This document shows positions 5,846 through 61,922 of a DNA stretch of 64,000 bases, one piece after another. This stretch comes from Eledone cirrhosa. Its lineage: Eukaryota. The position numbers and the translations under genes were made by a program. Within the stretch, counting starts at the first letter, position 1. Each line of letters begins with the position of its first letter. The notes beneath the pieces were generated by a model, which saw nothing but the letters and a program-made list of their open reading frames with translations, was not told where the DNA came from and made no database searches. The stretch covers positions 51,336,001-51,400,000 of the forward strand of contig OZ024750.1 of the NCBI GenBank assembly GCA_964016885.1, in the 5' to 3' direction.

Positions 5846-6035
5846 ATAAGTTTTCAAGTAGTGACTATGTCACTGAGTTAGTCTCGGAAGTGACAGTCAC
5901 TTTAAAACTCATAGCGAATGGTCTTCAAAATGTTTTTAAATAAACATACAGTATATGAGCAAATATGCTATACATACATTCATACATCCATCGCTTTTTC
6001 AGAGCACCAATACTAATTCATATATATATATAGAC

Positions 6036-8393
6036 AGTCGACGACCCGACAACAGGACCACCAACAAGACCCGTATGCGGGGCTAATATAGCTAGCAACT
6101 ACAGGATCTCCTACTTCCTCTCAATGGTTATACGCCCCATAATCAAGATGTCCCCAGATGTATGTGACAGTACAGAGGACCTCCTCAGCAGAATCAGTGA
6201 GTGCAACAAAAACAGGAGCCTATCCAACTGCATAATAGGCAGCATGGATGTGGTGTCACTGTAGCCATCCATTAACATTGATTTTGCTGTGAAAAGATGT
6301 GTGGAGATGATCATTGAGAGTGAGGTGGAGTTCTGCGACGTCGACACAGACGAACTGGGCCTCCTACTTAGACTTACCTACGACACTGACTACCTAGACA
6401 GCCATGACCTTAGATGTTTCTGCTCTAGTAGACCTATAAGAGGTAGACCCCCCACCATAACCTCAATGGCAAAAAAGACTCCCATGGGAAGGTGGATTGG
6501 GTGGACCAAAGCTAGACGGACCCCCCCAAAAAAACAATGAACAGGTAAGAAAAATGGTCGCACATGCAATAGGGGCTAGTATCGAAACTACCCTAAAGGG
6601 CCACATATTTAAGTTCAACGAGAAGATCTACACTCAAAATGAGGGAGCAGCCATCGGCGTCAGCATAGCTGGTGATGTTGCCAAACTTTTCATGGTATGG
6701 TGGGAAAGGAGACTTAAAGATCTCCTGAATGAGAGCTCCATAGACCTCATCATGTACTCTCGTTACGTAGACGATATCAATATAGTTATAAGAACACCCC
6801 CACTAGAGAGCACTAACAAGTTTGATTTAGAACGTAGCACGATGGAAAGCATCCAGCAGATAGCTAATTCCATACACCAGAGTATAACTGTAACTATCGA
6901 CTTCCCTTCCAAACACTCTAACAATAGACTAACTGTATTAGACACAGAACTCTGGATTAACACTATAGACGAGAGAGCCCAAATTCTCCACTCACACTAT
7001 GCTAAACCCATGGCCTCCAAATACCTGATACTCAAAAACTCAACAATGTCCAGTAGTGCTAAGTTTAATATTCTGATCGCAGATTTCGTACGAGTGATGA
7101 AGAATGTGTCCCGCATGTGCGACCCAACAGAAATGGAAAGACACATCCAACACTTCATCAACCGCATGCAGTTCTCTGGCTACAACCAAAGAGACAGAGT
7201 CAGAGTATACGAAGGAGCCATGGAAAAGTATAAGACCCTCATAGAACTGGACATGAAAGGAATTTGCCCATTATACAGGAACAAATCATGGAATAGCTTA
7301 GATAGGGCAAGACATAAGATAGGGAAAGCCACCTCATGGTACGACAACCAGAGATACCAGAGTGTCATGTTTGTGGACGCCACCCCTGGAGGGAAATTAG
7401 CTAACCAGTGTAGTAAGGCCCTGAGAAAGACCCACTTAAAAATAAAGGTGGTAGAAAGGACAGGAACCACCATAAAATCCCTGATCAGCAAAACCTACCC
7501 TTTTAAGAAAACCCACTGTACCAATAGGAAATGTATCATATGTAAGGTGAACCCTCGGATAAACTGTAAAACTAGAAACGTAGTCTATAGCATAAGATGT
7601 ACAGAGGGTACTTGCAGAAACATGACAATAGGTGAGACAGCTCGTAGCATAGTTGAAAGGATAGACCAACACTGGGGGGAACTAAAAGGACGAAAAAACG
7701 GGTCAGTATATACGAACATGCTAGACAACAACATGACGGTAACATAGACAACATAGAAATTAGAATAGTATCTAAACATAGAAATGACCCAGCAGATAGG
7801 CAAATCAGAGAGGCCAGTGAAATAGAAATTAGAAGACCAAGGCTAAACAGAAAGAATGAATGGAATAACAACAACACCCAAACAAACAACACTGACCTAA
7901 GAGAAGTATAAATAAGTAAATAAAATAAAATAAATAAATAAATAAATACATACACAAGCACAATAACAACAAGCACATAAACACACACTAGTCACCCATC
8001 ACACAGCAAACAAAACACTATACACACACGCAAACACATGCGCAAAGAAGACAAAATAAAATAAACAAACAAGCAAATAAATAAATAAATATATAGACAG
8101 ACTGAATAAAAATGGCGTAGACATACAATACAACAGGAGGAAAATATAACACCACTGACGATGTTGCAGATGTGCAACGAAAGATTTATGATAAACTATA
8201 TATATGTGTTTGTGTCTATATTGTATCTGTATTATTTTTGACCGTCGGTCAGTCAATGGCAACATTGAGGACCGAGTAAGTTAGATTACCGATATAAAAG
8301 ACACAGAAGCGAGAAGCGAAAACCAACCAAACAATGAGTGTGTTCTGTTATTAATTCTGGCAATATTACACAAATATGACCCTCCCCAAGTAT

Positions 8394-8399
<6 letters not shown>
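6036..8399 (+). mobile_element. Penelope-like retroelement, family C (5'-truncated), flanked by (TA)n
   Basis: RT plus GIY-YIG pseudo-ORF, then a 3' UTR with an HHR at 8152-8190 (CTGACGA t gttgca gatg tgcaac GAAA) and the terminus ...ccaagtataacaa followed by (TA)n. Confidence 0.9.
6050..7910 (+). pseudogene. PLE reverse transcriptase / GIY-YIG endonuclease, disrupted
   Basis: Motifs TRPVC, GSMDVVSL*PSI (A), QNEGAAIG (B'), YSRYVDDI (C), a Cys-rich linker, NVVYSIRC...IGETARS and LNRKNEW. Stop at ~6262, frameshifts at ~6530 and ~7695. Confidence 0.92.
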
Positions 8400-8482
<83 letters not shown>

Positions 8483-9612: not shown

Positions 9613-10410
9613 ATAATATAATTTATAGTTTACACTCAGGGGTCAATTACAATTATTCCGCTCTAAGAAAGAAGCATTTCTGAGCAGTACAATAGAAGTT
9701 AATATAAATAAATATATGATCAACTCTTATGTGTTTTTACTGCAAATTGACAATAAATTAGCTAGAATGAAATATCTTAATTCAAATACATATAGTCTGC
9801 CTGTATTGATCTAAAAAATAATACATCTATACTCACAGACGTATAACGGCAATGGCCTGGTGACTATACAAGTTTAAATTTCAAAATTCAAACCTTTTCC
9901 GTAGATCAGTCCGAAACTCAAAACGTAAACCTGTTTCACAAGGGATGGTATAATATTGACATAATTAATTAGTTGTGAAATAATTAATTTTCTGTGATTC
10001 TCAATAGGCACCCAGAAAAATTAAAGTTACTTCACCTCGGAGAAATATCTAAGGTCTGGTTTATCGTATGCTAAATACATCTGCTTTTGCACACGATTAC
10101 TTCCTGCATTCTAGCTCATGCTCATGGCGCTAGAAATAACAGCCGTTTATATGAGATTACGAATTCAGCTCGACCGGGGGAGCAGTTTGTATAATATAAT
10201 TTAGAGTTTACACTCAGGGGTCAATTACAATTATTCAGCTCTAAGAAAGAAGCATTTCTGAGCAGTACAATAGAAGTTAATATAAATAAATATATGATCA
10301 ACACTTATGTGTTTTTACTGTAAATTGACAATAAATTAGCTAGAATGAAATATTTTAATTCAAATACATATAGTCTGCCTGTATCGATCTAAAAAATAAT
10401 ACATCTTCGA
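9613..10410 (-). mobile_element. ORF-less ~579-nt unit, ~1.4 tandem copies, candidate HHR at 9923-10009
   Basis: 9613-9828 is repeated at ~10190-10406. Reverse complement reads gccta TTGAGAA ... GAA ACAGGT T^ tacgt. (TA)n on both sides. Confidence 0.6.
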
Positions 10411-10427
10411 TATTTCTACCAAACTTT

Positions 10428-10479
<52 letters not shown>

Positions 10480-13460: not shown

Positions 13461-13835
13461 AAATCACATATATTTTTATTTTTTGACCCGAATTACTTGG
13501 TCGTTTTTTTTTTGGCTGTGCGGATGATTTGTTTAACCACCATCTCAGTGTGTTTGGCCCTTAACGTATGTTGTTGCTCTGATTCATATGAATCAACAAG
13601 CGCTTGCCACACATCTCGGAAGTTGTTTTCGTTAATTCCTGAGCTGAAATACCATTCTCGCTAATTTATATTTATATATATATGAGATCAAAAGATGGTT
13701 AAAAGAGTTCTAACCATCTTTTGATCTTATATTATTTATACTCCAGTCCTACAAACCGTAGAGTGCTACTTATCCGATATTTGCATTGCTTTATTGTGCA
13801 ATAAAACTCACCTCCTACATATATATATATTTAAG

Positions 13836-14024
13836 AAAAAGTATGACCCCGACGGCAGAGCTCAAGCCGTTTTGACGGCTATTTGTGGACAGAAATAGCC
13901 TTCGAAACGGCTTGAGCTCTGCCGTCGGGGTCATACTTTTTCCTATTTCCCACTCTACTACCCTAAGCATTGGGTACTCTGGTGCGTTATGGTCCGTCTG
14001 GTTCCTTACCACATTTCCTTTGTT
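13836..14024 (+). mobile_element. Family A fold-back insertion
   Basis: Inverted arms 13836-13941 plus a tail ending ...gttccttaccacatttcctttgtt at (TA)n. Other copies at 31873, 32856, 36626, 45690 and 49027. Confidence 0.85.
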
Positions 14025-14035
14025 ATATATATATA

Positions 14036-14481
14036 TATAAACGTTTGAATATGTGTAATAAGGCCAAAACAATGCAGTTATGGACATAGAAAAAGGAATG
14101 CAATAGTGAAAGATATTGATGAGAATTCGTCTTTCACCTTGAATTTATTTAAATGTCCTTAATTTTCGAGATAATATCTCTTCTTCGGAGGGAAGTAAAG
14201 ATCTCAAACCAGCGTCTTTAAATCTCTAGCCAAGCCATATGGCTTGGCTAGAGATTTAAAGACGCTGGTTTGAGATCTTTACTTCCCTCCGAAGAAGAGA
14301 TATTATCTCGAAAATTAAGGACATTTAAATAAATTCAAGGTGAAAGACGAATTCTCATCAATATCTTTCACTATTGCATTCCTTTTTCTATGTCCATAAC
14401 TGCATTGCTTTGGCCTTATTACACATATTCAAACGTTTATACCTCATTACACAATGCTTCAAGTGAACTATAACCTCCTCC
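14036..14481 (+). mobile_element. Family D: ~406-bp spacerless palindrome plus 40-nt tail, with an HHR in each arm
   Basis: Axis at 14238/14239. HHR cct CCGAAGA a gagat att atctc GAA AATT A^ agg at 14286-14320 (+) and 14157-14191 (-). Confidence 0.85.
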
Positions 14482-18093: not shown

Positions 18094-18330
18094 TACATTT
18101 GTTTGTCGTTTTGGAAATGGTGATTTTAGTTTTATGTTGTTAAACATAAAATTAGTGTTTAAAAAAACTCTGTAAAAATAACTTATAATCAATGTATTGA
18201 ACATTGGTGATGAATTGAGAGGAAGGAGGGCTGATTGGTTTTATGGCGAGGTTCTTTTGTTTGGTTAGTTGTTGTTGTTTTCATTTACTGAGGTTATTTA
18301 CTGATTAATGACGTGGTCGTTGTAGTGATT

Positions 18331-19545
18331 ATAGAGAGTGGAGAGAATATAGGAATAGAGGAATAGAGGTTTGGAGGTAATAGAGAGTGGAGAGAATATA
18401 GGAATAGAGGAATAGAGGTTTGGAGGTTATAGAGAGTGGAGAGAATATAGGAATAGAGGAATAGAGGTTTGGAGGTTATAGAGAGTGGAGAGAATATAGG
18501 AATAGAGGAATAGAGGATTGGAGGTTATAGAGAGTGGAGAGAATATAGGAATAGAGGAATAGAGGTTTGGAGGTAATAGAGAGTGGAGAGAATATAGGGA
18601 TAGAGGAATAGAGGTTTGGAGGTAATAGAGAGTGGAGAGAATATAGGAATAGAGGAATAGAGGATTGGAGGTTATAGAGAGTGGAGAGAATATAGGAATA
18701 GAGGAATAGAGGATTGGAGGTTATAGAGAGTGGAGAGAATAGAGGAATAGAGGAATAGAGGATTGGAGGTTATAGAGAATGGAGAGAATATAGGAATAGA
18801 GGAATAGAGGTTTGGAGGTTATAGAGAGTGGAGAGGATATAGGAATAGAGGAATGGAGGTTATAGAGAGTGGAGAGTATTTAGAAATAGAGGAATAGAGG
18901 ATTGGAGGTTATAGAGAGTGGAGAGAATATAGGAATAGAGGAATAGAGGTTTGGAGGTTATAGAGAGTGGAGAGAATATAGGAATAGAGGAATAGAGGAT
19001 TGGAGGTTATAGAGATTGGAGAGAATATAGGAATAGAGGAATAGAGGTTTGGAGGTAATAGAGATTGGAGAGAATATAGGAATAGAGGAATAGAGGTTTG
19101 GAGGTAATAGAGAGTGGAGAGAATATAGGAATAGAGGAATAGAGGTTTGGAGTTTATAGAGATTGGAGAGAATATAGGAATAGAGGAATAGAGAATTGGA
19201 GGTTATAGAGAGTCGAGAGAATATAGGAATAGAGGAATAGAGGTTTTGAGTTTATAGAGAGTGCAGAGAATATAGGAATAAAGGAATAGAGGTTTGGAGG
19301 TTATAGAGAGTGGAGAGGATATAGTTATAGAGGAATAGAGGATCGGAGATTATAGAGAGTGGTGAGAATATAGGAATAGAGGATAGAGGATTGGAGGTTA
19401 TAGAGAGTGGAGAGAATATAGGAATAGAGGAATAGATGATTGGAGGTTATAAAGAGTGGAGAGAATATAGAAATAGAGGTATAGAGGATCGTAGGTTATA
19501 GAGAGTGGAGAGAATATAGAAATAGAGGAATAGAGGTTTGGAGGG
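18331..19545. repeat. 49-bp purine-rich minisatellite, ~25 copies
   Basis: Unit agagagtggagagaatataggaatagaggaatagaggtttggaggttat, with starts at 18333, 18382 and onward. Confidence 0.95.
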
Positions 19546-22663: not shown

Positions 22664-22829
22664 ATAATAATAATGAGAAGTATACAAATATATGTGTATA
22701 CATACATATACATGTATATATAAACATATATTTTTCACAAGTATGTGAGATTGTATGTTGTCGACCTTAACCAGTGTTACTCTATGATTATGAGAGACAA
22801 AATAATCGAAATAATTAAATTGACTATGT

Positions 22830-23338
22830 AAAATATTATAAAAAGGAATAATAGATACAATATACCTATTTTTTCTTTCGTCCCGACTGTACAGTTTCGC
22901 TGGTCACTATGCAAGAATGTTATATCATAGATATGTAGCATTGTTGTGAGGTAAGCCAGCTTATCAAGGGAGCACTTCAGGGAAGTATAGTGACTGCTTT
23001 CAAGCAAACACTATATACACTTATAGTCAACCTTACCACCTATCATTCAATATCTCTCTCTGCCTTCTGAGATATTTTCACTGCTACAAGGGATTAATCC
23101 CCTTTCTTGACCGGTGTATCACGTGATAGAGTCTCCCTCCGCCTTTCTGAGATTTTCTCGCATGCTACGGACGTATGTAGTTAGGGCTCTTCCCTGAGGT
23201 GCTCCCTTGCAACAATGCCTTAACTCACAACAATGTTACATATCTATGATATAACATTCTTGCATAGTGACCAGCGAAACTGTACAGTCGGGACAAAGGA
23301 AACAAATAGGTATATTGTATCTATTATTCCTTTTTATA

Positions 23339-23345
<7 letters not shown>
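22830..23345. mobile_element. Inverted-repeat insertion (arms ~22830-22985 / 23188-23345)
   Basis: Arms are reverse complements. The left arm carries a UUGAUAA HHR and the right-arm core is decayed. Confidence 0.8.
22881..22971 (-). ncRNA. Type I hammerhead ribozyme with U3-A8 core
   Basis: Reverse complement: tccc TTGATAA gctgg ...(52 nt)... ccagc GAA ACTGTACAGT C^ ggga. Confidence 0.8.
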
Positions 23346-23424
<79 letters not shown>

Positions 23425-24826: not shown

Positions 24827-24868
<42 letters not shown>

Positions 24869-24926
24869 ACAAGGAAAAAGAGACGATTATTAGGAAGAAA
24901 AATATATTTTTTCCTTTTTTTGTTTC

Positions 24927-25503
24927 TCTCTTTTTTTTCTGGGTTAGAAAATGATTAAAACGAAATGTTTTACTTTGTGTGAAGTGTTAAGGTATTAGTT
25001 GATTTATTTATTTGCCCCCATCATGGAGTCATGGATCAACTAAGCACTCTTGCTATATTAACACATTTTGATCTGCTTAACTTCAATGACTTTGCTTGTA
25101 ACTAACATTATTTTTTCTTCCACATTGACTTTTATGTTCCACATTATGCCCGTTTGTTTTCCTTTTTCTTTTTTCTTTTCACTTCATAAACCTTGTTTGT
25201 ATATAACATTATTCTTTCTGTACCTTCTGTTTAACATGTGCGACACCACACTAATACATTTCACTATCATTTGATAATGCATAAAAATGCTGAAACCGGT
25301 AATAGACAATAATTAAATATATAAATAGATAAATAAATGCCATTGTTAAATAATAAATAAATCAACTAATACCTCACCACTTCACACAAAGTAAAACATT
25401 TCGTTTTAATCATTTTCTAATCCAGAAAAAGAGAGAGAGAGAAACAAAAAAGGAAACAAATATATTTTTCATCCTAATATTCGGCTCCTTCCCCATATTT
25501 TCA
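24927..25503 (+). mobile_element. Inverted-repeat insertion; candidate U3-A8 HHR at 25264-25305
   Basis: Arms ~24900-25010 / 25355-25470. TTGATAA t gcat aaaa atgc t GAA ACCGGT A^ atag. Confidence 0.65.
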
Positions 25504-30054: not shown

Positions 30055-30340
30055 GGGGGTATGTGTGTGCGTGTAGATGTGTTTATGTGTCTGTCTATAT
30101 GTGTTTGTGTGTTTGTGTAAGTGTAAGTGAGACAGAGAGAGAGAGAGTGGGGGAGTATGTGTCTGTGTGTAGATGTGTGTATGTGTCTGTCTGTAACAGT
30201 CTGTGTGATTGTGTATGAGAGAGAGAGAGAGTATGTGTGTGTGTGCGTGTCCGTGTGTGTCTGTTTATGTGTCTGTGTGAGTGTGGGAGAGATATTGCAT
30301 GTCCATATATATTCTATCAAAGTATTATTTGTAATAATAA

Positions 30341-30945
30341 GGGCGGTGGATTGGCAGTATGGGTAGAGGGTCGGACGCCATGCTTTCCAGCATAGTTACG
30401 TCCCTTTACGATCTGAGTTCAAATCCCGCCGAGGTTGACTTTGCCTTTCATCCTTACGGGGTCGATAAAATAAAGTACCAGTAATGCACTGGGTAATTGC
30501 TGGCCTTGTGCTAAACGTAGAAACAATTATTTGTAATAATAAGGGCGGTGGATTGGCAGTATCGGTAGGGGGTCGGACGCCATGCTTTCTAGCATAGAGT
30601 TACGGCCCTTGCTATTCTGATTTCAAATCCCGCCGAGGTTAACTTTGCCTTTCATCCTTACGGGGTCGATAAAATAAAGTACCAGTAATGCACTGGGTAA
30701 TTGCTGGCCTTGTGCTAAACGTAGAAACAATTATTTGTAATAATAAGGGCGGTGGATTGGCAGTATCGGTAGGGGGTCGGACGCAATGCTTTGCAGCATA
30801 GAGTTAGCTCCCTTTACAGACTGAGTTCAAATCCCGCCGAGGTTAACTTTGCTTTTCATCCTTACGGGGTCGATAAAATAAAGTACCAGTAATGCACTGG
30901 TTAATTGTTGGACTTGTGCCAAACGTAGAAACAATTATTTGTAAT
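30341..30945 (+). mobile_element. Three head-to-tail tRNA-type SINE copies
   Basis: Starts at 30341, 30543 and 30747. A-box-like tggcagtatcgg, B-box gttcaaatcc, core ttgcctttcatccttacggggtcgataaaataaagtaccag. Confidence 0.9.
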
Positions 30946-31374
30946 AATTGTTTCTACTTTTGACACAAGGCCAGCAATTATCCCAGTGCATTACTTGTAA
31001 AACATCTGATTTGGTAGAAATTATATATGTATCCATAGGGAGATGGATTAGAAGTATCGGTAGAGAGCTAGGCACCATGAAGCCTTGCACATACGTCGAC
31101 TCAACAAGCAAATAAATAATAGATTAGAACTCAGCACACAGTACTTGACATAAAAAGACTCACCCACCGCACCCACAGGCACACAACTAAACATCTCATA
31201 CAGAAAAGGAAATTTATTTCGTGAAATACTAAATTGGCAATTGACGTCATTCCCGTGGAAAGCGAAGTAACCCTCGAAAAATGCTTGAAAACGACTTAGA
31301 AAAATTGTTAATCAAAATCAAACGTTTATCCCAAAGAGAGGAAATTGAAACGTTATCCACTGAAGGTTCTTTAG

Positions 31375-31875: not shown

Positions 31876-32178
31876 CCAGTAAGACCCCGACAGCTGAGCT
31901 CAAGCCGTTTCGACGGCTAATTCTGGACTAAATGAAAATTTATCCTGGTATTTAAATAGCCGATCTTCTCAAGAGGTAATTCCATATGGAATTACCCCTT
32001 GAGAAGATCGGCTATTTAAATACCAGGATAAATTTTCATTTAGTCCAGAATTAGCCGTCGAAACGGCTTGAGCTCAGCTGTCGGGGTCTTACTGGTTCCT
32101 ATTACCCACTCTACTACCTCAAGTATTGATTACTTTGGTGCGTTATGGTCCACCTGGTTCCTTACCACATTTCCTTCG

Positions 32179-32247: not shown

Positions 32248-33065
32248 TATTGAAGTTTCCGCTGAAAATTGAAAAAGTCATAGGAGTGAAGAGTGCTCTA
32301 TGTAAGTACCAGAGCTAAATTTAATGTATAATAAACAATACAATATAATTACCTCATTACCAGAGGTTTCCCGAATAAGACGAATACAAGAAACGTCATC
32401 TTTCGTTCGTCGGACAAGGCAATTTAAAATATAGTGAAATATTTGAAAAATCTCCTCAAGAAAGCCAAAAGTTTAACGGGCAAAAAAAAAATATATATAA
32501 AAGTAATGCAAGAGATATATAAAAATAAAATAAGGAAATATAGTTAGGGTATGTGTATAAATGTGTGCATATTCACTCACAAATACATATGTACATATGT
32601 GTGTATTAAGAAATGCATGTGTATAGTGAAAAAATGTTTGCTTAAGTAGATATATGAGGGCAAGCATAACAGTGTATGTGTGACCACAAATACGTATGTA
32701 ATATATGTTGAAAAAGAAATTGTAAGATAATAGAGTTAACGTACATCCAGAGTCAGGTACTAAGGATTGAAATATATACACATACAAGTATGAAAGCACG
32801 CGTATAAACACACACACACTCGCAACCACATACATGCGAGGAGTGATATATACAGGGTAGGGTAGTAGAGTGGGAAATAGGAAAAAGTATGACCCCGACG
32901 GCAGAGCTCAAGCCGTTTCGACGGCTATTTCTGGACTGAGTGTGCAAGGCTTCATGGTGCCTGGCTCTCTACCGATACTGCTAATCCACCTGAGTCTAGA
33001 AATAGCCGTCGAAACGGCTGGAGCTCTGCTGTTGGGTCGTACCTTTTCCTATATACATATATATA

Positions 33066-34329
33066 TATTGTTATACTTGGGGAAGGTCATATTTGTGTAA
33101 TATTGCCAGAATTAATAACAGAACACACTCACTGTTTGGTTGGTTTTCGCTTTTCGCTTCTGTGTCTTTTATATCGGTAATCTAACTTACTCGGTCCTCA
33201 ATGTTGCCATTGACTGACCAACGGTCAAAAATAATACAGATACAATATAGATACAAACACATATATATAGTTTATCAAAGTTCTTTCGTTGCACATCTGC
33301 AACATCGTCAGTGCTGCTATTGTTTCCTCCCGTTACATTGTATGTCTATGCCATCTTTATTTAGTACCCAAGTATAACAATATTTGTTTCGACACACGAT
33401 TTCATATAAAAAACCTCGCAAAACTAATTCATATATATATATATATATATATATATTTCGTTTCTGAATTTGTTTAGCAAGATTCTTTATCTGAAATCGT
33501 GTGTTGAAACCGTTATTGTTATACTTTGGGAGGGTCATGTTGCCAATAAGAAACACACGCACCAGTTGTTTTTACTTCAATTTATTATTATAATAAATTT
33601 ATAATAAATTTATAAATTTATGGTTGGTTGGTTCCACAACCAGATAGTTGTTTATATATTGTCATAGTTCTTTCGTCACACACTCTGTGACCTCTTCAGT
33701 GACTGGGGATTCCTTTCTTTGTTTCTGTGCCTCTCCTTTGTTCTGTCCTACGCCATTTTGTTTCTGTGTGTGCGTTGTGTGCTCAGTCTGCGCATGCGCC
33801 ACATCCGGGTGTCTGTGTGTGTTTATGTTCATTTATTTATTTGTTTATTTACATGTTACTGGTTGGTTGTTTGTTCTATGTGTGTGTGTGTTTTCATTTT
33901 GTCCTTAATTGTAAGTTGTGATGTTGCTGTTCCACTCATATTTTCTATTTAATTTTGGTTGTAATTCTTTTATGTTTATTGCCTCTGTAATTTGTCTAAA
34001 CATTGCGTCTTTTCTGTGTGTAGATTCTATTTTTACTTCTATGTTCTCTAATTTACCCTTGTGTTCTATTTTAGCATGTTGGTAGAGTACAGATGATTCT
34101 TTACTATATTGAAGTTCTCGCCAGTGTTCATTTATCCGTTCCTCTACACTACGAGCTGTCTCACCTATGTACACTATATTTTTGTCTCTACATTGTCCTT
34201 CGGTACATCTTATGCTATACACTACACTTCTAGTTTTACAGTTAATATGGGGGCTTATTTTACAGGTTATACATTTCTTATCTATACATGAGGGTCTTTG
34301 AAAAGGGTATGTCTTGCTAATAAGTGTTT

Positions 34330-34332
<3 letters not shown>
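33066..34332 (-). mobile_element. Family C cluster: subfamily 1 3' end (33066-33356) and subfamily 2 element with endonuclease fragment (33905-34332)
   Basis: Translates to KTYPF..C..KKCITC...CKTRSVVYSIRC...YIGETARS...LNRKYEW. HHRs at 33275-33313 and 33661-33703 (gtca CTGAAGA g gtcaca gagtg tgtgac GAA AGAACT A^ tgac). Confidence 0.9.
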
Positions 34333-34379
<47 letters not shown>

Positions 34380-34830
34380 TAGACGGACAGAGAGAGCCTG
34401 TTGAGGTTACCTTTCGGAATTGACTGCAATGTAACTCTCCGTTCATTAGGTGCTCCGCGCCATCTTATTATTATATGCAAACTTATTCTTAGTTAAATAA
34501 ATCATACTCAGACAGGCTAGGAGATTTAACAAAAGCAGGAAATTAAATTGAAGAGTTGAAAGCTTGTTACCAAGAATAATTCATATTTAATTAAAATATC
34601 GATTTCTAGTATAGGCAAAAGGTCATAGGAGTGGAGATGAGGAGGAAAGGAGTGCAGGTAAGGAACAGTGATGTAATCGAACTCAGTACATGAGTGGTAT
34701 TTACATTATTTTATCGATCCGCAGAAGATTGAGACATGACGTCGACTTGGGTTGTATTTCATTGTATAATATAAAGAGATCTTACTGAACAGGACACCTT
34801 ATTTCTTCCGGTCAACTATACAGTATATTA

Positions 34831-35138: not shown

Positions 35139-36625
35139 GTCTATTATCTACTGGCTTTATTTATAAATTGAATAATTTTATGGATATAGCATGGCCGCAT
35201 GGTTAAGAAGTTTCCCTCGCAATCACATATTCCCGAGTGTGTTCGGTTCTAGTGTGAATGTCTTGATCAAGTGTCATTTAACCATAACTCCAGCATGATC
35301 TAAGCCTTGGGAGAGAATTGGGGTAGAGAGGGACTGTTTCAAAGTCATTGGGGTCACATGAACATTAATCAAAATATCAGTCTTGTCACACATTATATGA
35401 AGCTTCTGACTTCGAATTACATTGAGAGTACACGTGACTGCGGAATGCTGAGCTACTTGTACGTTAACCCTAACCCTAACCCTAGCCCTACCACCTTGCT
35501 AATGGGTATTTATAGTGGAATTCACTCTTGTGCAATCATTTAGACATAGGTGATTAGTTTGACGATACCTTCCTCCCTCAATCCATCCCAAAACAAAGGA
35601 ACGTGAAAAGAGATTTGGAGGATTACTTTCCCCTTCCCTTAATCAACAGTAAAATGAAATTCATGAGCAAGCTATTCCTGAGATCGAACAACCGAAACAG
35701 TCTCAGTAGAAACCGACGGAGGTCGATTCCATTCCAAATTATTCCTTGATAAATGAGAAGAAATAGATAAACAGTAATGTAAACTTAATGTTTTTGATTT
35801 TAATTAATATTTACAGACAACCCCAACCCTTTCTCATTATCTCATGAAAAACTAATATTTTCACTTTGTTATTGTTGTTATTATTGTTGTTGTCGTCAAT
35901 ATTTTTATAAGTATCTCAATTATCCAATTTATTTACGTAAATTATTTTTGAATCAGGAAAACACGAATTATAATATCGATTATTTATATTGATACAAAGA
36001 TTGGCATAATCAATGCGGTATTTAGTTACAGCCATTTATGGTATGGGTTCAATCTCCACTGCTGTCACCTTTCTTCTTCTTCCTTCTCGAGGCTCAATGA
36101 AATAAGCTCTAGTTTAGTTCTGGGGTCGATATATTCGACAATGTTTGATCCTCAGTATGCTTCGATGATGAACATTCAGTTGTTCAATCAACTAAACATT
36201 ATCGTTAAATTAGCGTGCAACTGATTGACTTAGTATTCCACTGACACGAGTAGCCTTAACATTATTCTCGTGCTGATCTTTACATTACAGATACAACCCC
36301 TCCAACAATTTTCTATTCAGTTTCTATCTTAAAACTTGTATCAACTCGATCAAAGATCAGTGAGAGATGTATATTGAGTAAAATGTTGGATTCAGCAATA
36401 ACAACATTAGTTTATTCTATTATTTTAATGGTTTCTGCCATTAGACAGCGGCCATGCTAGGACATCATCTTTATTTAGTCGATCATATCGACACCATTAC
36501 TTATTTTTTGAAGTCTAATACTTATGTTATCGATTTCTTTTTATTAAACACAGACACAAATATAAACATAGACACCCATATAAACTCACCCACACACTCA
36601 TATATATATATATATATATATATAT

Positions 36626-36818
36626 AACGGAGGAAATGTGGTAAGGAACCAGGTGGACCATAACGCACCAAAGTACTCAATACTTAGGGTAGTAGAGTGG
36701 GTAATAGGAACGAGTAGGACCCCGACGGCTGAGCTCAAGCCGTTTCGACGGCTAATTCGTCCAGAATTAGCCGTCGAAACGGCTTGAGCTCAGCCGTCGG
36801 GGTCCTACTCGTTCCTAT
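36626..36818 (-). mobile_element. Family A fold-back insertion
   Basis: Hairpin 36704-36818 plus tail 36626-36703, TA-flanked. Confidence 0.88.
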
Positions 36819-36827
36819 ATATATAGT

Positions 36828-36944: not shown

Positions 36945-37304
36945 GACCAAAGTTCGAAGAAACAGGAGTTTGGAAATTTGGAGAAATGAAATTTTATTAG
37001 GATGAATGAGAAGGGTAAGCAAATAGTTCAGCATGTGGGAGTGAGGCCGAGGAGGAGAGTCTGGGTGCATCATTGGTGCCGTTATGTGTGTACAGATAGA
37101 TTGCATTTCGTGTGTGTCGTTGATGTTACTTGGTGAACTTCTACAGTATCCTAAGTCATTGGTCAACCCAAGGCAATATTAAAAAACACTTGACCAACGT
37201 AACCCACAGCAGAACTGAACTTAGAACCACATGGCTACAAACCGAACTCCTTAATCAGACAGCTATGTCTGCACCTGTAGTCACATAAAGCAACAGTTAA
37301 TAAT

Positions 37305-37692
37305 GTTTTCTACTTTTGACACAAGGCCAGCAATTACCCCAGTGCATTACTGGTGCTTTATTTTATCGACCCCGTAAGGATGAAAGGCAACGTTAACCTC
37401 GGCGGGATTTGAACTCGGAACATAAAGGGACATAACTCTATGCTTCATAGCATGGTGTCTGACGCTCTACTGATACTGCATGGCTTTTGATTTAGGCCCA
37501 AGGCCAACAATTTGGGGAAAGGGGAAAGTTGATTAAGTCGATCCCAGTGCGTTACTGGTACTTTATTTTATCGACCAAGTAAATATGAAAGGCAAGGCTA
37601 ATCGCGGCGGGATTTGAACTCAGAACGTAAAGGCACGTAACTATATGTCGTAAAGCATATTGGCCGACGATCTACCAATATTGTCAATCCCT
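37305..37692 (-). mobile_element. Two adjacent tRNA-type SINE copies
   Basis: Reverse complement of the SINE at 30341 (ggatttgaactc B-box, atgaaaggcaa core). Confidence 0.88.
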
Positions 37693-41199: not shown

Positions 41200-42223
41200 C
41201 AGTTTCATACAATTGCGATCTGCAGCAAAACGAAAAAACAGACAGAATAATTTGATATCACAATGGGATCTAACGACTCAGCGCAAATAACGGACTTGGT
41301 GGGAATATATATAGCGCACAACTTACATAAGGAATTCAATAACCTCCAAGGAGGAATTTACAGAGACGATACACTCCTTCTACCCAAAAACTTAAATAAT
41401 CAGAACATGGAAACATAAAGAAAAAACATCAGAGTATTCTTAAAAACTAAGCCTAGGTATCACTTTCGAACTTAACTCTAAAAAAGCAAATTTCTTAGAT
41501 GTAACTCTCAACCTAAACACAGGATTAAGAGATCCCTTCCATAAGAATAACGAAAATCTAGCATACATTAGTTATAACTCAAACCACCCCCGATCTATAA
41601 TTAACTCCATAGCACATAGTATATCCCTCAGAATAACCCGTCTATCTTCGATCCTAGAAATGTTTAATGAACACGCAAACTATTATAACATAGCTTTACA
41701 TAAGGCTGGACATAAAGAGAAACTGGAATACATACTAGATAGAGACAACAATAACAAACCTAACAACAGCAACACTGCCCGCTCATATAGAAATAAAAAG
41801 CATAGGACTAAACATACAGTTAGACAACGAACACCAAAAATGACCGAACAAAACACTAATATAAGTACCCCCCAAAACTATAGAAGATCCAGAGATAGAA
41901 AGTACCTATGGTTCAATCCAATATTCAACTCCCCTATAAAAACTAAACTACCTTCTACATTCTTTAAACTAATAGATAAGCACTTCCCTGCACTACACAA
42001 ATACCATAAAATCTCCAATAGAAAAACTATAAAACTTTCCCACTCTACTGTAGCCAACATAGAATCGCTCATACCTAAGATCAACCACAAAAATATCTCT
42101 AAAGAAATTAACCTACCAACATACACCAAAGCACCAAATACAAAACACAAACACATAACAACATCACAACCACAAACAAATCGGAACACATCACAACAAA
42201 ACATTAATAGGCCTAAATCATAA
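41200..42223 (+). pseudogene. PLE reverse transcriptase fragment (WFNP-motif type), frameshifted
   Basis: Translates to FDITMGSNDSAQITDLVGIY, GGIYRDDTL, FLDVTLNL, SNHP and WFNPIF...KHFP...KLSHS. Confidence 0.88.
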
Positions 42224-45065
42224 CCCACCCACATTAGGGGGTTTGAGGGCGAGGTAAGACCTACGCAATCGATGTTTGCATGCAGTTACAAGTTCGTCTT
42301 TTTTGTTGAGGAGTTGGTCCTTCGTAAACAGCATTTGTAATGTTTCCTCCGAGCATAAGTTACACGGACGGCGTCCCCCCGTGTAGGGGTTAGCCCTGGT
42401 CAGTAAGCTAGAAGTAAGATTGTATGATATGTTATTGTCTTGGAGGTCTCAGATGTGGCCCGAAAGAGTATTGGCATGGCGCCGGGCCGGGTTTCGGAAC
42501 GTATGTCGGTGTTGGTAGAGCCGGGTCTTAAAGTCACAAGCGGTTAATCCTACATAGGCTTTGTTGGAGGTGCTCGTCCTCACGTTGCATTGGTAGATCA
42601 CGTTACGTTCTCGGCATGTGTTGTTGAGGGGGCGCGTAGATCTATCAAGGCAGTTACACCTCCTGTTCGGCTCTTCACTAATGTCTAGGTTGTTTCTTCC
42701 ATAGGGGTTGAGTTTTTTGTTGTTTGAGGAGGCGATGTTTTGTACAAAGTTGGGTGTGGTGCTATAGGAGAGTTTGATAGTGTTTTTGTTGATTATGTTG
42801 TGGTAGCGGTGTTGTGGTGGGAAGTGTTTTTCGAGGAGCCTAAAGAAGATTTTCCCGATAGGTGTTGCCACCTCGGCCTTGTGGGGTGGGTTGAACCACG
42901 TTAGGTCGCGTGAGTGGCGGCGTCGCCTGCTGGTTCCGCTAAGGGAAGCTGGGTAAAAGGACATTTCCTCTCGGAAGCCACTTCGCTTGGGGGCCTGGTT
43001 GTAATGAGGCTCATGTTCATGGAATATCTGCTCATTAACGGACAAACGAGATATGCGTAGGGAAATGTTTTAACCAGGTTATTGGTGATGTTTCTAGTAT
43101 GGTTAGAGCGGCGATGGATGTAGTGCGGATTGTCGTTGGTTTCCCGTATGGGTAGTACAGATCATTTTCGAGGTTGAGGGTAACGTCCAGGAAATTGACT
43201 CGGGTTAGGGACCTTTGGAGGGTGATTTTAAAACGCCAGTCACGGTAGAATTTGATTAGTTGTTTACGGCCCCGGTCTATACTACTGGGGTTGTACCCTT
43301 TGAGTGTAAGGAGCCCATCGTCTCGCTACAATCCACCGCCGAATGCAGGAAACATTTCCGTGAGTTTATATAGTAGGTATAACCCTATAAGATCGGTCAC
43401 TTCGGCCAAGTCGGTCGCGCCCATACTGACGTCGAAGGGGAGTGTCGGGAACTCTCTTTATCCACTTGGAGTTGTCGAAAAGGAGGAGTCTTCCTGACGT
43501 GGAGAATGATATTTCTTTTCCGGTCGGTGATGGGTGTGAGTGTTTTGGCAAAGTCCAAGCCTCCAACTCGGGGACACCGAGCGCACCGAACCCCTCGAAC
43601 CACGGACTCCCTACTTCACACTGAAGGACCACAAATCCGACTTCGACCGCAAACCATCCACCAGGCTTATAAACCCGACGAAGTCGGACATAGAGAAAAT
43701 TAGTAAAAATATCCTAGACCGCGTTATACCAGAACTTAAGCAAAACGCGAGACTTAGCTTAAGGGACAACACACAGGAAGTAATCTCATGGTTCAGGAAT
43801 ATTGAGGATAAACAGGACACCAAATTCATCCAGTTTGACATAGAGAGTTACTATGCATCTATTATTTTACTGCTCCTTACGGCCGCTTTGGACTTTGCCA
43901 AAAGACTCACACGCATCACCGACCGGGACAGAAATATCATTCTCCACGCCAGGAAGACAGACCTTCTTTTCGACAACTCCAAGTGGATGAAGAGAGTTCC
44001 TGACTCCCCCTTCGACGTCAGTTTGGGCGCGAACGACTTGGCCAAGGTGACCGATCTTATAGGATTATATAAACTACTATATAACCTCACCGAAATGTTT
44101 CCTGCAATTTCCTGGACGTTACCCTCAACCTCAAAAATGATCTGTACTACCCATACGGGAAACCAAAAGACAATCAGCACTACATCCACCGCCGCTCTAA
44201 CCATACTAGTAACATCACCAATAACCTGGTTTAAAATATTTCCCTACGCATATCTCGTTTGTCCGCTAATGAGCATATATTCCATGAACATGTGCCTCAT
44301 TACAACCAGGCCATCAAGCGAAGCGACTTCCGGGAGGAAATCTACTTTTATCCTGCTTCCCTTAGCGGAAACAGTGGCTCATGCCATGTAAAGTGGTTCA
44401 ACCCTCCCCACAATGTCGAGGTGGCAACACCTATCGGGAAAATCTTCTTTAGGCTCCCCAAAAAACACTTCCCACCACAACACCGCTACCATAACATAAT
44501 CAACAAAAACACTATCAAACTCTCCTACAGCACCACACCCAACTTCGTACAAAACATCGCCGCCTCAAACAACAAAGAAACGCAACCCCAATGGAAGAAA
44601 CAACCTAGACATTAGTGAAGAGCCGAACAGGAGGTGTAACTGCCTTGATAGATCTACGCGCCCCCTCAACAACACATGCCGAGAACGTAACGTGATCTAC
44701 CAATGCAACGTGAGGACGGGCACCTCCAACAAAGCCTATGTAGGATTAACCGCTTGTGACTTTAAGACCCGGCTCTACCAACACCGACATACGTTCCGAA
44801 AACCCGGCCCGGCGACATGCCACTACACTTTCGGGCCACATCTGGGACCTCCAAGATAACATACAATCTTAGTTGGAACTTACTGACCAGGGCTAACCCC
44901 TAGATGCGAGGACGCAGTCCGTGTAACTTATGCCGGAGGAAACATTACAAATGCTGTTTACGAAGGACCAATTCCTAAACAAAAAAGACGAACTTGTAAC
45001 TGCATGCAAACACAGATTGACTAGGACTTACCTCGCCTCAAACCCCCCAATGACCCGGGTGGGTA
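42222..45065 (+). mobile_element. PLE (WFNPP type) as a ~2.8-kb inverted duplication; RT and GIY-YIG pseudogene in both arms
   Basis: Plus arm 43580-45020 encodes TLKDHK..RLINP, FIQFDIESYY, WFNPP, CNC and NVIYQC..YVGLT. Minus arm 42222-43560 mirrors ~43870-45065. Confidence 0.92.
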
Positions 45066-45689
45066 GATAATGGCTGCAACATCCTACTTTTCCCACCCTG
45101 CCGAACAAGATAGGGGAAACCCCAGCTAACATAAGTAGATGTACCTCTTTTCTTTTCCTTTCTATTTTCTTCTTCCCTTTATCTGTTCCTATGACTTACT
45201 TCCACTCCATATCCTCTTCCTTTGCCTTTTCCCCCTTTCGCCTACCCGAAGCAGCCCATCGGGCTTTCGTAGCCTCAGTACCCCCACCCTAGTAAATTAT
45301 AGATAGTATTGGCCGAAAACGCAATAGCAACTAAATATAGCAGCTGTTTCAGACTCTAGAGATTTTTTTATCACTACTTACTATCCAATTTTATATTTTT
45401 ATATATATTTATTTATTATCTTCTAATCTCAATTGATTTACCTATTCTATAACGCCCCTTCTCTATTTTCTCCAGAATCTTTTTCGCCTGCTTCCTCTGG
45501 CCTAGTTTCATACACAATCCTTAGAAATTGCTGTATAGAATTCACTTTCAACGCTTGACCGGCTCCGCCCACTCCCGCATTGTTCTACAGGCAAGTTCAG
45601 CCACCCCTCCACCCACTTCCATGATAGACTTAATTGTGTTTACAAGAAATGTTGACCAATCCTCTTGACAACTACAATCTTCCCATATA

Positions 45690-45885
45690 AGGAATTACCC
45701 CTTTGAAAAGTTCGGCTATTTATTTACCACGCTAAAAATTCAAATTTAGTCCAGAAATAGCCGTCGAACCGGCTTGTGATCTTCCGTCGTAGTCAAACAT
45801 TTTCCTATTACCCACTCTACTACCCTAAGTATTGAGTACTCTGGTGAGTTTTGGTCCATCTGGTTCCTTACCACACTTCCTTTGT
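45690..45885 (+). mobile_element. Family A linear copy with TTGAAAA-core HHR remnant at 45699-45778
   Basis: Homologous to 31988-32181. Ends at (TA)n. Confidence 0.8.
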
Positions 45886-46740
45886 TATATATCTATATAT
45901 ATAAATATATATATACGAGCAAATGAGGTTTATTTTCCATAAAAGTCCCAGGAAATTAACAATGAAGTTATAAAAGTTTAAATTAATGCATGCAAGATTT
46001 CACAGCTGTTGCATCAATGCTTCATAGTAAGCATACGAACGTTTCAGCAGTCCCGCATATATATATATGGAAATAATAAACAAAAATAGGAAATAATAGG
46101 CAAAAATATGTCTAGTTTTTATTCAACGTCCCGACAGCAGTTTAGCCAATTGTCTTACAGGCAATGCTGCAGTAAAAAAGTGCAACATCGCTGTAAGGTT
46201 ATAAGGCTTATCAAGAGACTCCTCAATTTAGTCGACTGTTTCTTGACTCGAACGTTATAAGTGAATATTTCTAGGGTGGGATAAATTATCACGTGATACA
46301 GCGGTCACAGAAGAGAGGTGACAGCAGGACATTTAGTGAGTACCATATTTGCTAGAAAAAGTAGTTAGCACGCACCTATTTAAATCTACCAATAGGGAGT
46401 TTGGGACAATATAATAATGAGATACACACATAAATACATAGGTATATGTGTGTGTGGTGTCCACGTCGGCCTGTTTTGCTCAATGACCGAAAGAGTTAAA
46501 CTAATCAAAAGAATTTAACTAATCAATTAATCAGAGCTATTCATCAAATCATAAATGCCAGGAAATAATAGACAGAAATATACCTATTTTTTCTTCAAAG
46601 TCGTCCAGACTGACCACACACCCTTACCTATGCCCCGGTGTGTGTATCTCATTACTATATATATATATATGTGTGTGTGTGTGTATGTGTGTGTATGTTT
46701 ATATATATATATATATGTGTGTGTGTGTATATATATATAT

Positions 46741-47725
46741 GGTAAATTTCTTTAAGTCGTTTGGAAGCCTCGACAATGCAAATGGGTAAATCTCCGGGTA
46801 ACAAGATCCGGTGGTGGAGAGAGAGATGTAAGTGGGTGTACGTTGAGATGCGTGGCGTGTATAAGACGTGTACAGGAATGAAGGAAAGAGCATAAAGGAT
46901 AAAATAAAAATAACAACACGAGAGAGAGTTACCTTGGGGGAGATTTAATTGTCCCTATATATTTCGGATTCACATCCATCAATGGGTTTTTTTTCCGGGG
47001 TGGGGGAAAGGTTGTCTGTCGGAAAGGTGCGAAAGGTGCGAAACGCGTCCTCCGCTGTTTGTTGTTTTGAATATTCCTTAAAATGCCACACCTGGGCGAG
47101 AATACCACCAACGCTATCCGCAAGGCTATACGGAGGGAGGGCCTCGACATCCACCTGGCCCACTCGGGCTCCTCCTTACGAAGATGCCTCTCCAGGAAAC
47201 CCGTGAAATCAACTGACGCGTGCTCCCTCAGAGACTGCCCGATGCGCCATGCGAACTGTTGCCTACGCACATACGTCGTGTATAAGATAGAATGTAACAA
47301 GTGCAACCAATACTATATAGGTAGCACAATCCGACCTTTGCACATCCGGATCAAAGAACACACTAAAACCAGGGCCTCGTCTTTCCGGAAACACATAGAC
47401 AAATGCGGAAACAAAGACGGAAGGCCCATTGTCACAATTCTAGCAACTGAAAGAAACGTCGGCACGTTACGTATCAAGGAAGCACTTTGCATCAAACGCC
47501 TAGCGCCACAAATAAACAATCGATCCGAGAGAAGCGAAATGAGGTGGTTGGTATAAGTTAACAAACGATGAAGCAACACACGCACACACACGCACACAAT
47601 CGAGACAACAACACACACACACACACACACACACAGTAGCATTCCACCATACTACACTGCCAATACAGAGGAACAAGGCAACAACACACGCACACACACA
47701 CAGTCAAGCGAGACAACAACACAGG

Positions 47726-47757
<32 letters not shown>

Positions 47758-48257
47758 CATTCAACAAACAGGCAGAGAATGGACTGACAGCTAGCGCCAC
47801 CCCACTCCCACAATTGAAAGAACTACTTCGGCCGCTGACCTCTGCCCGACCGACCCCATTTCACTCGCACGCGCGCTCTGCTGAATACCTCAGATATTCA
47901 AAACAACGAACAGCGGAGGACGCGTTTCGCACCTTTCCGACAGTCAACCTTTCCCTCACCCCGGAAAAAACCCCGAGTTGATGGATGCGAATCCGAAATA
48001 TATAGGGACAATTAAATCTCTCCCAAGGTAACTCTCCCTCGTGTTGTGATTTTTATTTTATCCTTTATGCTCTTTCCTTCATTCCTCTACACGTCTTATA
48101 CACGCCACGCATCTCAAAGTACACCCACTTACATCTCTCTCTCCACCACCGGATCTTGTTACCCGGAGATTTACCCATTTGCATTGTCGAGGTTTCCAAA
48201 CGCCTTAAAGAAATTTACCTTATTATTCCACAATGCTTCAAGCAAACTTCAATACTG

Positions 48258-48259
<2 letters not shown>
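46741..48259 (+). mobile_element. 5'-truncated PLE, family G, with inverted pLTRs
   Basis: ORF 47083-47556 encodes C.L..C...CLRTYVVYKIECNKCNQYYIGSTIRPLHIRIKEH...EALCI...QINNR (GIY-YIG). 46741-47075 mirrors 47893-48219. Only the 3' half of an HHR is recognisable (ggat gcga atcc GAA ATATAT A ggga). Confidence 0.92.
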
Positions 48260-48329
<70 letters not shown>

Positions 48330-48845: not shown

Positions 48846-49214
<369 letters not shown>

Positions 49215-49439
49215 ATATATATTATATATATATATATATATATACGGTAAATATGCTGACTAGACGGGGTTGACCATGTAACGCACCAATCAGAAAATAA
49301 TAATGCAATTTGATTCAAGCACTCGCCGTCATGTTCTTTCTTCTAAATATGATGATTTTTAAGTCAGTGACAGAGTATATATGGAATAAAGAAAATGTTA
49401 AGTTTGGTGTAGATGTTAAAGAGTCCTTTCTTAACAAAG

Positions 49440-49516: not shown

Positions 49517-50019
49517 TATCATTATGTAATATGTTTTCGTGTCCGAGGCAATCCAGTCTAAAGAGAAAGGAACGGACAAAAATAATGTTTTCATAGCCGA
49601 TGTCCGCTCCCTTGAGAACTTTAATTCCACTCCACAGCTTTGTGCAGGCGTAGAGTTGATGGACTGGCTAACCAACTGTCTACCACCCAATTCCATGCCA
49701 GAACCTAGGGCCACATAGACGATCTATTTCCATACCAATCCTCCCTCACCACAGTCGGTGAGATGCTACTGTCACAGAGCTCAATTCAGCCAACATCTTT
49801 TAGATTACTGTTACTCTAGCTTCCGGCAGGCGCCCGCACCAATATCATCGCCCCACCTACTACCACTATTTTATGGCGGGATAACTCATGCCAACATGTA
49901 TCTCATGGCAATATATATCACAACTTTGTTAATAAACGGCTCTTTAACATCTACATCGAATTTCGCATTCAGCATATTTTTTATGTTTCAATAAATAATT
50001 TAGCTGGTAATCTATGTGT

Positions 50020-50920
50020 ATCATTGATTGACCAATAGTTTAAAATATAAGTATAATTATAGTTTCTCAAAGTTCTTTCGTCACACATATGTGTGACATC
50101 TTCTGTGATTATCATGTTCCCATGTTTCTCCCGTTGTGTTCGTTCCGATATTGTTTTTTTATTTTATTTTTTGTTTGTTTTTTTGTCTCTGTTTGCGCAT
50201 GCGTTTATATACGTATATTCTGTTTGGTGTGTGCCCGTGTGTTCGTGTCTGAGTATGTGTGTGTTTATGTGTTTATATTATACCGTGGGTCACTAGTGTG
50301 TGTTTGTGTGTGGATGTTGTTATTGCATTTGTGTATATTTATATTCTATTTTAAATCACGAATGTGTGTATGTGTATGGTTGTTGTTATTCTATTCAATT
50401 TATCTATTGAGCCTAGACTTTCTTAATTCTGTTTCAGTAGCCTCGCTAACTGTATAATTGCGGAATCATTCCTATGTTTAGATATTAATTTAATTTATAT
50501 GTTATACATTATTATGTCGTGTTCATGCAGTACTGAAGTCCTTTTAGTTGACTCCAGTGTTCATCTATTTCCACTCATATGCTTGGGGCTGTCTCACCTA
50601 TGTATGTCATCGTTATGTTTCTGCAGGCACCCTCTGTACATTTTATATATAGATTACATTTCTAGTTTTACAGTTTATTTGTGAACTTACACTACATATT
50701 ATACATTTCTTGTGTACAGTGGGTTTTCTTAAAGGGGTAACTTTTACTGATCAGGGATTTATGGTAATTCCTGGTTTTTCTACCACAATATTTTAATAGA
50801 TTTTTTTTTTAGTGCCTCTCTAAACTGATTAACAAGTTCACCTCCAGGCGTTGCATCCACGAACATGAGACTTTGGTATCTATGTCTGTCGTTCCATGAG
50901 TTGGCTTTCCCTATCTTTTG
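50020..50920 (-). pseudogene. Decayed family C PLE (linker, endonuclease, 3' UTR); HHR remnant at 50067-50108
   Basis: GKANSWNDRHRYQSLMFVDATPGGEL matches the 6497 ORF. Reverse complement: tca CAGAAGA t gtcacac atat gtgtgac GAA AGAACT T tga. Confidence 0.85.
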
Positions 50921-51112
50921 CTTAGATTGAAGGAAAATGTGTGACGCTTCCGTCTCCAAGAATCGAACTATGCAGGGGGTGTATTACGGACAACCGCTCA
51001 GAAACAATTAAAACAATGCCTGAAATATTTTAACATGAAATTTAACGTATATAAATGCGTTAGCGAATTAAATTGCAGCATTGTTCGTATTGTCATATCG
51101 CGTGACGATCAA

Positions 51113-51330
51113 GAGCGGTGGATTAGCAGTATCGGAAGAGCATCGGACAACATGCTTTGTGGCATATAGTTACAGCCCTTTACGTTGTGAGTTGAAATCC
51201 CGACGATGTTAGCTTTGCCTTTCATTAATACGGGGTCGTTAAAATAAAATACCAGTCATGTACTGGGGTCGATTTAATCGATTTTCCCTTCCCCCAAAAT
51301 TGCTGGCCTTGTGCCTATATAAGAAACCAT
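51113..51330 (+). mobile_element. tRNA-type SINE
   Basis: Homologous to the 30341 family. Confidence 0.85.
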
Positions 51331-51443
51331 TATTACATGATGATCAACAGAGCAGAAACCATCTAATGAACAACGCTAATGTTATCAACACACCTCAGTC
51401 TAGTACCGAGTATCTATGTTATCTGAGATAATCCCAAATTAAA

Positions 51444-60887: not shown

Positions 60888-61341
60888 GTATGTATATATA
60901 TGTTTGTGTGTGTGTGTGTATCCGTGATAATATCTGTGTTTTATTGTGTTTGACACAACACCGGTTATTTACCCGGTGTTGTATCAAAAAGCTATGTTAA
61001 ACACTAGATAAATATAAATTGATACAAGAAGTACCAGACTGCAATGAATTTGTATTTGCATTGATATGATCGACCAAAAGCCACCCAAACCATTGAAGAT
61101 TGTGCTGCAGTATGGTCGCAGTCAGTGACTAAAGAAAATAAAAGAATGAAATAAAAGTGTTATGTGTTCGGTGAACGATTTTCATGGCGGCGAATTCTGA
61201 GTCGTTGGATCGCCGGAAAGAATGATTTGCTGCCGTCTTTTCCAATCTCGGCTCTCTAAGTTCAAATTCCACCAAGGTTAACTTTGCCTTTCATCCTTTC
61301 AAGGTCGACAAAAATATTACCAGTCTAGTAGGGTAGTCGAT

Positions 61342-61435
<94 letters not shown>

Positions 61436-61735: not shown

Positions 61736-61922
61736 GGGCGGTGAATTGGCAGTATCGGTAGAGGGTCGGACGCCATGCTTTCCAGCATAGTTACGTCCCT
61801 TTACGATCTGAGTTCAAATCCCGCCGAGGTTGACTTTGCCTTTCATCCTTACGGGGTCGATAAAATAAAGTACCAGTAATGCACTGGGTAATTGCTGGCC
61901 TTGTGCCTAAAGTAGAAACAAT
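61736..61922 (+). mobile_element. tRNA-type SINE (an older copy at ~61185-61342)
   Basis: Nearly identical to 30341-30530. Confidence 0.9.

Follow-up and report, generated by a model that had tools for sequence, protein, structure and literature searches.

A type I hammerhead motif with a U3-A8 core in a high-copy, probably Penelope-like, repeat family of Eledone cirrhosa

The window analysed here, a 64,000-nt stretch of the Eledone cirrhosa genome (contig OZ024750.1), is AT-rich and microsatellite-rich animal DNA with many dispersed repeats. Among the 103 open frames scanned, two gave GIY-YIG matches above the cut-off and one gave a weak RVT_1 match. At least three kinds of broken RT and GIY-YIG genes, all Penelope-like, are found at 6034-8416 (+), 33050-34492 (-), 46656-48320, 49950-50929 (-) and 41250-43560, some of them with a cysteine-rich linker ahead of the endonuclease. 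An abundant short interspersed repeat occurs at 30324-30948 (three tandem units of a 204-nt repeat), 37299-37690, 51108-51333, 53501-54397 and 61255-61936; we take the 204-nt repeat to resemble octopus SINEs. Minisatellites occupy 18329-19544 (49-nt unit, 25 copies) and 61957-62821 (35-nt unit, ~25 copies).

Table 1 Hammerhead-like motifs and associated features, in positions of the window
Feature	Position	Strand	Remarks
Family A type I hammerhead motif	22881..22971	-	U3-A8 core 22967-22961; 52-nt helix II insert
Helix II insert, family A	22904..22955	-	Internal loop and distal hairpin of ~12 pairs; alignable with the 46.2 kb relative
Inverted arm of family A insertion, with tail	22780..22985	-	Read coverage at least to 22780
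Body between family A arms	22986..23188	+	High-copy in reads
Second family A arm	23189..23350	+	92% identical to first arm; ends in (TA)n
Diverged family A relative, A2	46128..46219	-	TTGATAA core 46214-46208; 5-bp helix I; long helix II hairpin
Family B small hammerhead motif	25267..25306	+	Core 25271-25277; 6-nt palindrome 25295-25300; helix I damaged
Family C type I hammerhead	31994..32087	+	Core 31999-32005; 48-nt helix II insert; 6-bp helix III
Inverted arm of the same family C insertion	31884..31977	-	99% identical; core 31972-31966; no independent copy
Decayed family C copy	45698..45790	+	Core TTGAAAA 45703-45709
Site D	9925..10010	-	Core 10004-9998; hammerhead-like motif order; all helices defective
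Broken RT and GIY-YIG gene, Penelope-like	~43300..45100	+	~600 nt upstream of the 45703 core, same strand

The minus strand at 22881-22971 holds a full type I layout, here called family A (Table 1). Helix I comprises 4 bp (22971-22968 with 22884-22881) and is followed by the core heptamer TTGATAA, with U3 and A8 where ordinary hammerheads have C3 and G8. Helix II, of 5 bp (22960-22956 with 22903-22899), closes the long insert, and GAAA (22898-22895) runs into a 10-nt palindrome (22895-22886) that constitutes helix III, has A15.1 and U16.1 as its ends and borders C17 at 22885. The preliminary description had reported this core at 22961-22967(-) together with helices I and II and the palindromic helix III, all of which we found as claimed. 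The cut is predicted to fall between 22885 and 22884.

The motif sits in one arm of a fold-back insertion, in which 22985-22825 is paired with 23189-23350. In the plus arm, 10 nt across the core and helix II (23210-23219) are replaced and the hammerhead is thereby broken; this second arm is missing from the preliminary description. We found no coding remnant in the body between the arms. A decayed piece of the family A 3′ end and tail is present at 46564-46612 (-), 82% identical over 49 nt, and a search of JGI metagenome contigs with the family A pattern gave 0 matches.

A diverged relative with the same heptamer, A2, was likewise absent from the preliminary description. Its local alignment to family A scores 128, against a maximum of 90 in 1,000 shuffles. 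Overall identity is 58/93 (62%), 10 of 11 core positions are kept, and seven of the ten changed pairs still pair, three of them via changes on both sides. This copy is dead, as it has T in place of G12 (46144) and a disrupted helix III palindrome.

Family C, at 31999, has the hammerhead as the minimum-energy fold of 31994-32087 and scores at least 24 with the type I descriptor, which bears out the TTGAGAA hammerhead proposed there. The 45703 copy does carry a TTGAAAA core and is 82% identical to the 31999 family, but the motif has decayed, with an extra T before the core, GAAC for GAAA, and broken helices I and III. Eleven aligned arm fragments of family C occur in the window, in fold-back pairs whose tails are unequal, one short and the other long, and end at (TA)n; 8 of the 11 start inside helix II and lack the core. 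Four insertions have both arms coreless (13816-14039, 32858-33068, 36600-36825 and 49012-49246), and truncation in these seems to cluster inside helix II. The gene at ~43300-45100 encodes RT and GIY-YIG look-alikes, families that were assigned on a minority or part of the cluster members, and its link to family C is by position alone, with an AT-rich stretch between the 45703 core and the gene.

At site B (25271), a TTGATAA core is joined by a helix II of one U.U mismatch plus 4 bp, by GAAA and by a 6-nt palindrome, in a single copy in the window. The heptamer claimed earlier is thus present. Contiguous pairing in helix I is limited to 2 pairs, and the score over the three helices together is 20, at which 0.86 matches are expected per shuffled window. 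A helix-I-free descriptor, written after site B had been seen, gave six matches including site B, against 0.016 U3-A8 matches and 0.094 of any class per window in 500 shuffles. The build of site B is that of the C3-G8 family at 3785, 11611 and 48654. The U.U mismatch at 10.1-11.1 is common to site B and that family (3785+, 11611+, 48654-), and an inverted copy of the sequence downstream of site B lies at 24853-25012. Site B is a probable third U3-A8 family.

The TTGAGAA hammerhead described at 9998-10004(-), site D, did not hold up. The heptamer is present, and the score of 17 (among 34 cores scored) is at chance level, shuffles giving 4.5 matches at 16 or above and 2.0 at 18 or above; with three helices defective as well, we rejected site D as a ribozyme. 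The element that holds it (9621-10434) resembles a partial tandem: (TA)n tracts enclose direct repeats of 208 nt that are 97% identical, and no convincing ribozyme was found in it.

The full set of core features (N3-U-G-A-N-N8-A with a Watson-Crick 3-8 combination, G12-A13-A14, A15.1-U16.1 and H17) is present at 22967(-), 31999(+), 31972(-) and 25271(+) and incomplete at 46214(-) and 45703. Helices I, II and III around an unpaired core can form in family A as a dimer and in family C as a monomer; helix I is weak at 25271, and all helices are weak at 10004(-). Leaving aside the broken family A arm, three of the six U3-A8 copies in three families are damaged (46214, 45703 and 25271).

Positions 3 and 8 are reported to pair in the active core, U3-A8 to be active in vitro and to occur naturally, and Penelope-like elements to carry hammerheads. 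The type I descriptor was run on the repeat-masked 64-kb window with each of the 16 possible nucleotide combinations at positions 3 and 8. At a score of at least 24, ten matches were C3-G8, three were U3-A8 and none fell in the other 14 classes; one G3-A8 match scored 21. Occupancy of only these two complementary classes is the prediction of a kept 3-8 pair. The three U3-A8 matches are 22967(-), 31999(+) and 31972(-), the latter two being arms of one fold-back insertion, and 0.02 such matches are expected per shuffled window (100 dinucleotide shuffles, same score). Whole-motif folding energies were no better than those of shuffles (z -1.06 for A, 0.17 for C, -0.11 for B and 0.89 for D), so the case stands on motif order and pairing rather than on stability.

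Similarity between A, B, C and D is at shuffle level in every pairwise comparison except that of the A plus arm with B (34, shuffle maximum 32), and the four are therefore counted as separate families. A short, similar-looking motif lies ~100-145 nt upstream of the core in A, A2 and C (23107-23145 (+), 45555-45575 (+) and 46287-46312 (-)), a resemblance that could hint at common ancestry.

C3-G8 hammerhead-like cores occur at 3785+, 4277-, 5739-, 8155+, 11611+, 14689-, 14807+, 15829+, 21929+, 22300+, 26193-, 26586+, 27950+, 33311-, 33699- and 48654-; such ordinary cores, in several other repeat families, exceed U3-A8 cores in number. At the gathering score Rfam gave 0 matches in the window, C3-G8 hammerheads being missed as well. 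Rfam hammerhead searches of 22780-23320 and 31975-32175 gave none at E-values up to 10, and there is no hammerhead among the 150 of 461 rows listed from an E-value run over the whole window.

Sequencing reads bear on whether U3-A8 is the state of family A as a whole. Four of eight sequencing runs were aligned to 22780-23188 at 80% likeness. Two RAD-seq runs yielded 5,875 and 6,505 reads and one contig set yielded 300 records, at 80-100% likeness, which makes family A high-copy; RAD reads sample only copies close to the RAD cut site and at least 80% alike, and their variants are unphased. The core is covered by 1,591 and 1,732 reads. Among the 40 of 153 variant rows listed, which reach down to a share of ~10-15% and leave 21 indel rows outside, none affects position 3, 8 or 9, GAAA, helix III, C17 or proximal helix II. 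Only two of the rows listed touch the core or proximal helices: the free position 7 varies (369/1591 and 403/1732 reads), and in helix I a C is replaced by U, which leaves a wobble pair (469/1522 and 611/1683 reads). The expectation that the family consensus carries both changes is thus upheld for family A as far as these rows go. Had C3 or G8 been more frequent than this, the variants listed would probably have included it; a minority class may exist. A single contig under a second organism label has seven substitutions, all listed and none in the core, and one of its six gap letters is listed. U3-A8 looks like the norm of family A and not like decay.

Folding predictions differ between families A and C. 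Two family A copies, cofolded without constraint, adopt a dimeric hammerhead with a shared 10-bp helix III at -53.4 kcal/mol, against -44.4 kcal/mol for two monomers. The monomer hammerhead has a probability of 0.0015 in family A, where the single-strand minimum-energy fold hides helix III and the cut site, and of 0.42 in family C. The palindromic helix III duplex is predicted at -13.4 kcal/mol in A and -8.3 kcal/mol in B, and the near-palindrome of C at -26.3 kcal/mol. The copy at 22881-22971 is itself probably an inert, truncated insertion, since its sole neighbour is a broken copy on the opposite strand and any minus-strand transcript reading through the locus would include 160 nt complementary to the motif.

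The setting of the motifs is that of Penelope-like insertions, for which fold-back pairs, tails and microsatellite flanks have been described (Craig 2021, PMC8557442). Inverted truncated copies, unequal tails and insertion at microsatellites were all found, as were many dispersed, variable copies, often in opposite-strand pairs (the reads of A, the 11 arm fragments of C). Copies of A and C form inverted pairs, and the window contains no head-to-tail tandem hammerhead units. Neither A nor B has an RT or GIY-YIG gene attached within the window, and the Penelope-like assignment of family A accordingly stands on its anatomy. The strict descriptor that Cervera and De la Pena (2014, PMC4209133) published for minimal Penelope-like hammerheads limits loop 2 to 3-10 nt and the interior of helix III to two bases. 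We rejected this strict class for A and C, given their 48-52-nt inserts and longer helix III; site B has loop 2 in range and four bases inside helix III, and so falls outside as well. A, B and C belong with the variants of Penelope-like hammerheads.

With its full type I layout and U3-A8, the 22881-22971 motif likely represents the ribozyme in the terminal repeats of a high-copy Penelope-like family. By prediction, cleavage after C17 requires two copies joined by the palindromic helix III. In the mobile ancestor, one RNA with two same-sense repeats, or two RNAs, would have formed a dimer via helix III and then cut itself. The element's own protein possibly aided dimer formation or cutting, and selection on the self-cutting step would have retained the 3-8 pair. 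This explanation draws on the anatomy, on family-wide retention of U3 and A8 (in the reads listed and in A2) and on the fold-back arrangement.

Common descent without any such selection would be the strongest competitor. If U3-A8 arose once or twice in founders and was inherited while the elements spread without cleavage, the motif would be a passenger. Precedents exist, since hammerhead mutants spared insertion in one in vitro Penelope-like system, the Poseidon element PAc of Anolis carolinensis (Frangieh 2024, PMC11167929), and Naiad elements spread without canonical hammerheads (Craig 2021, PMC8557442); several copies here are broken, too. The reads speak on both sides. Over the whole family A arm the contrast is modest, with 1/38 constrained positions variable against 17/123 others (p 0.043, or p 0.07 once two rows found on a single contig are removed), whereas within 22878-22976 it is 1/38 against 14/61 (p 0.004). 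A passenger would also have to account for the lack of any U3-G8 or C3-A8 core among the strong matches, and for the retention of core and pairing in A2 at its low identity. We regard this explanation as improbable.

Somewhat less probable still is that family A is a non-autonomous tandem hammerhead repeat of the metazoan retrozyme or satellite type, making circular RNA, rather than the end of a coding Penelope-like element. Such repeats share a palindromic helix III and the dimer fold (De la Pena 2017, PMC6155905; PMC4209133), and no coding remnant lies beside family A in the window. Against this, family A copies are inverted and not head-to-tail, their tails and (TA)n flanks are Penelope-like, and the lengths of helices I and II depart from the canonical 6 and 4 bp. 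Least credible of all is that the U3-A8 cores, in a genome this AT-rich, either decayed from C3-G8 hammerheads or resemble them by chance. The window does contain 64 bare TTGANAA sites, changes from C to T and from G to A are frequent, and neither site D nor site B, when scored in full, rises above chance. For A and C, the number of matches expected in shuffled windows, the read-wide retention among the variants listed and the diverged relatives with the same core refute this view as far as the read variants listed go; it holds for D and may apply to the core of B. A functional ribozyme in the ancestor of family A remains our preferred reading. The earlier claim of a compensatory 3-8 change that characterises whole families instead of marking decay is supported for A and C by the class scan, the reads, A2 and the 82%-alike C copies, and lacks support for D, which is at chance level. 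Likewise, of the four U3-A8 families proposed, A and C are firm, B is probable and D is unsupported.

The helix II insert offers a further lead. Compared with shuffles, its folding gives z -6.07 in A2, -1.97 in A, -2.22 in C, -3.58 in the 45703 copy and -0.24 in the broken A arm. In the window copy's own fold, three read variants break pairs in the family A insert. In an A2-informed structure, which was picked after A2 had been seen and so gives no independent test of pairing, five of the six read variants in paired extension columns keep or restore pairing and one breaks it. Covariation in the extension across three sequences was not significant (48/500 shuffles). A long helix II extension with compensatory changes may be a small new point, as a lead and not a result. 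It is conceivable, if rather unlikely, that a Penelope-like lineage couples U3-A8 to a conserved long extension (internal loop plus ~12-pair hairpin) that serves as a tertiary brace or protein docking site, and that two sequence-unrelated families in one genome converged on this design. U3-A8 plus extension would then define a new structural subtype and would test in nature how peripheral elements offset core changes.

The core change in itself is not new. Natural U3-A8 cores are published, which removes the novelty implied earlier: C3-G8 covaries to U3-A8 in several natural examples, with earlier in vitro activity cited (Perreault 2011, PMC3088659), and Schistosoma Penelope-like hammerheads with U3-A8 gave ~1,300 hits that a first descriptor had missed (Cervera and De la Pena 2014, PMC4209133). 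The latter report agrees with the proposal that CUGANGA searches overlook such cores. A and C escape searches for other reasons as well, since the published descriptor caps loop 2 at 10 nt and the interior of helix III at two bases. Descriptors used in hammerhead censuses need to admit both U3-A8 cores and long inserts in helix II. The families described here are new examples in a new host; we found no dedicated study of cephalopod hammerheads in the literature searched. The published variant gains a host and two or three families. Since a monomer fold is predicted for family C, it would lend itself to bench work in which U3-A8, C3-G8 and the single changes are compared, with the extension present or removed.

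Among known systems, PAc likewise has its hammerhead in a Penelope-like repeat, and its cleavage depends on the 3-8 pair and is protein-assisted, insertion in vitro being unaffected in hammerhead mutants (Frangieh 2024, PMC11167929). Its core is C3-G8 and its activity demonstrated, whereas the cores here are U3-A8 and their activity is predicted. The variants of Perreault 2011 (PMC3088659) share U3-A8 and, with site B, the U10.1-U11.1 mismatch; unlike those variants as described, the motifs here sit in what are probably Penelope-like repeats. Palindromic helix III variants, opposite-strand pairs and low dimer activity are also reported by Cervera and De la Pena (PMC4209133). The palindromic helix III of A and B resembles that of the Drosophila virilis Penelope, rotifer, shrimp and mosquito variants described there, and family C, predicted to fold as a monomer, resembles the fungal and protist variants with a large helix III; unlike these as described, A and C combine U3-A8 with ~50-nt helix II inserts. 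Another close parallel is Cercyon of Schistosoma mansoni (PMC4209133). A and C differ from minimal Cercyon hammerheads in their 48-52-nt helix II inserts and their 10-nt palindromic or 6-bp helix III, and also in lacking an extra base after A9 and in their host. They share with Cercyon the same core change, the type I arrangement, mostly truncated copies, a predicted dimer and opposite-strand pairs 100-700 bp apart, and the heptamers of 22967/25271 and 45703 are printed in the supplement of that paper.
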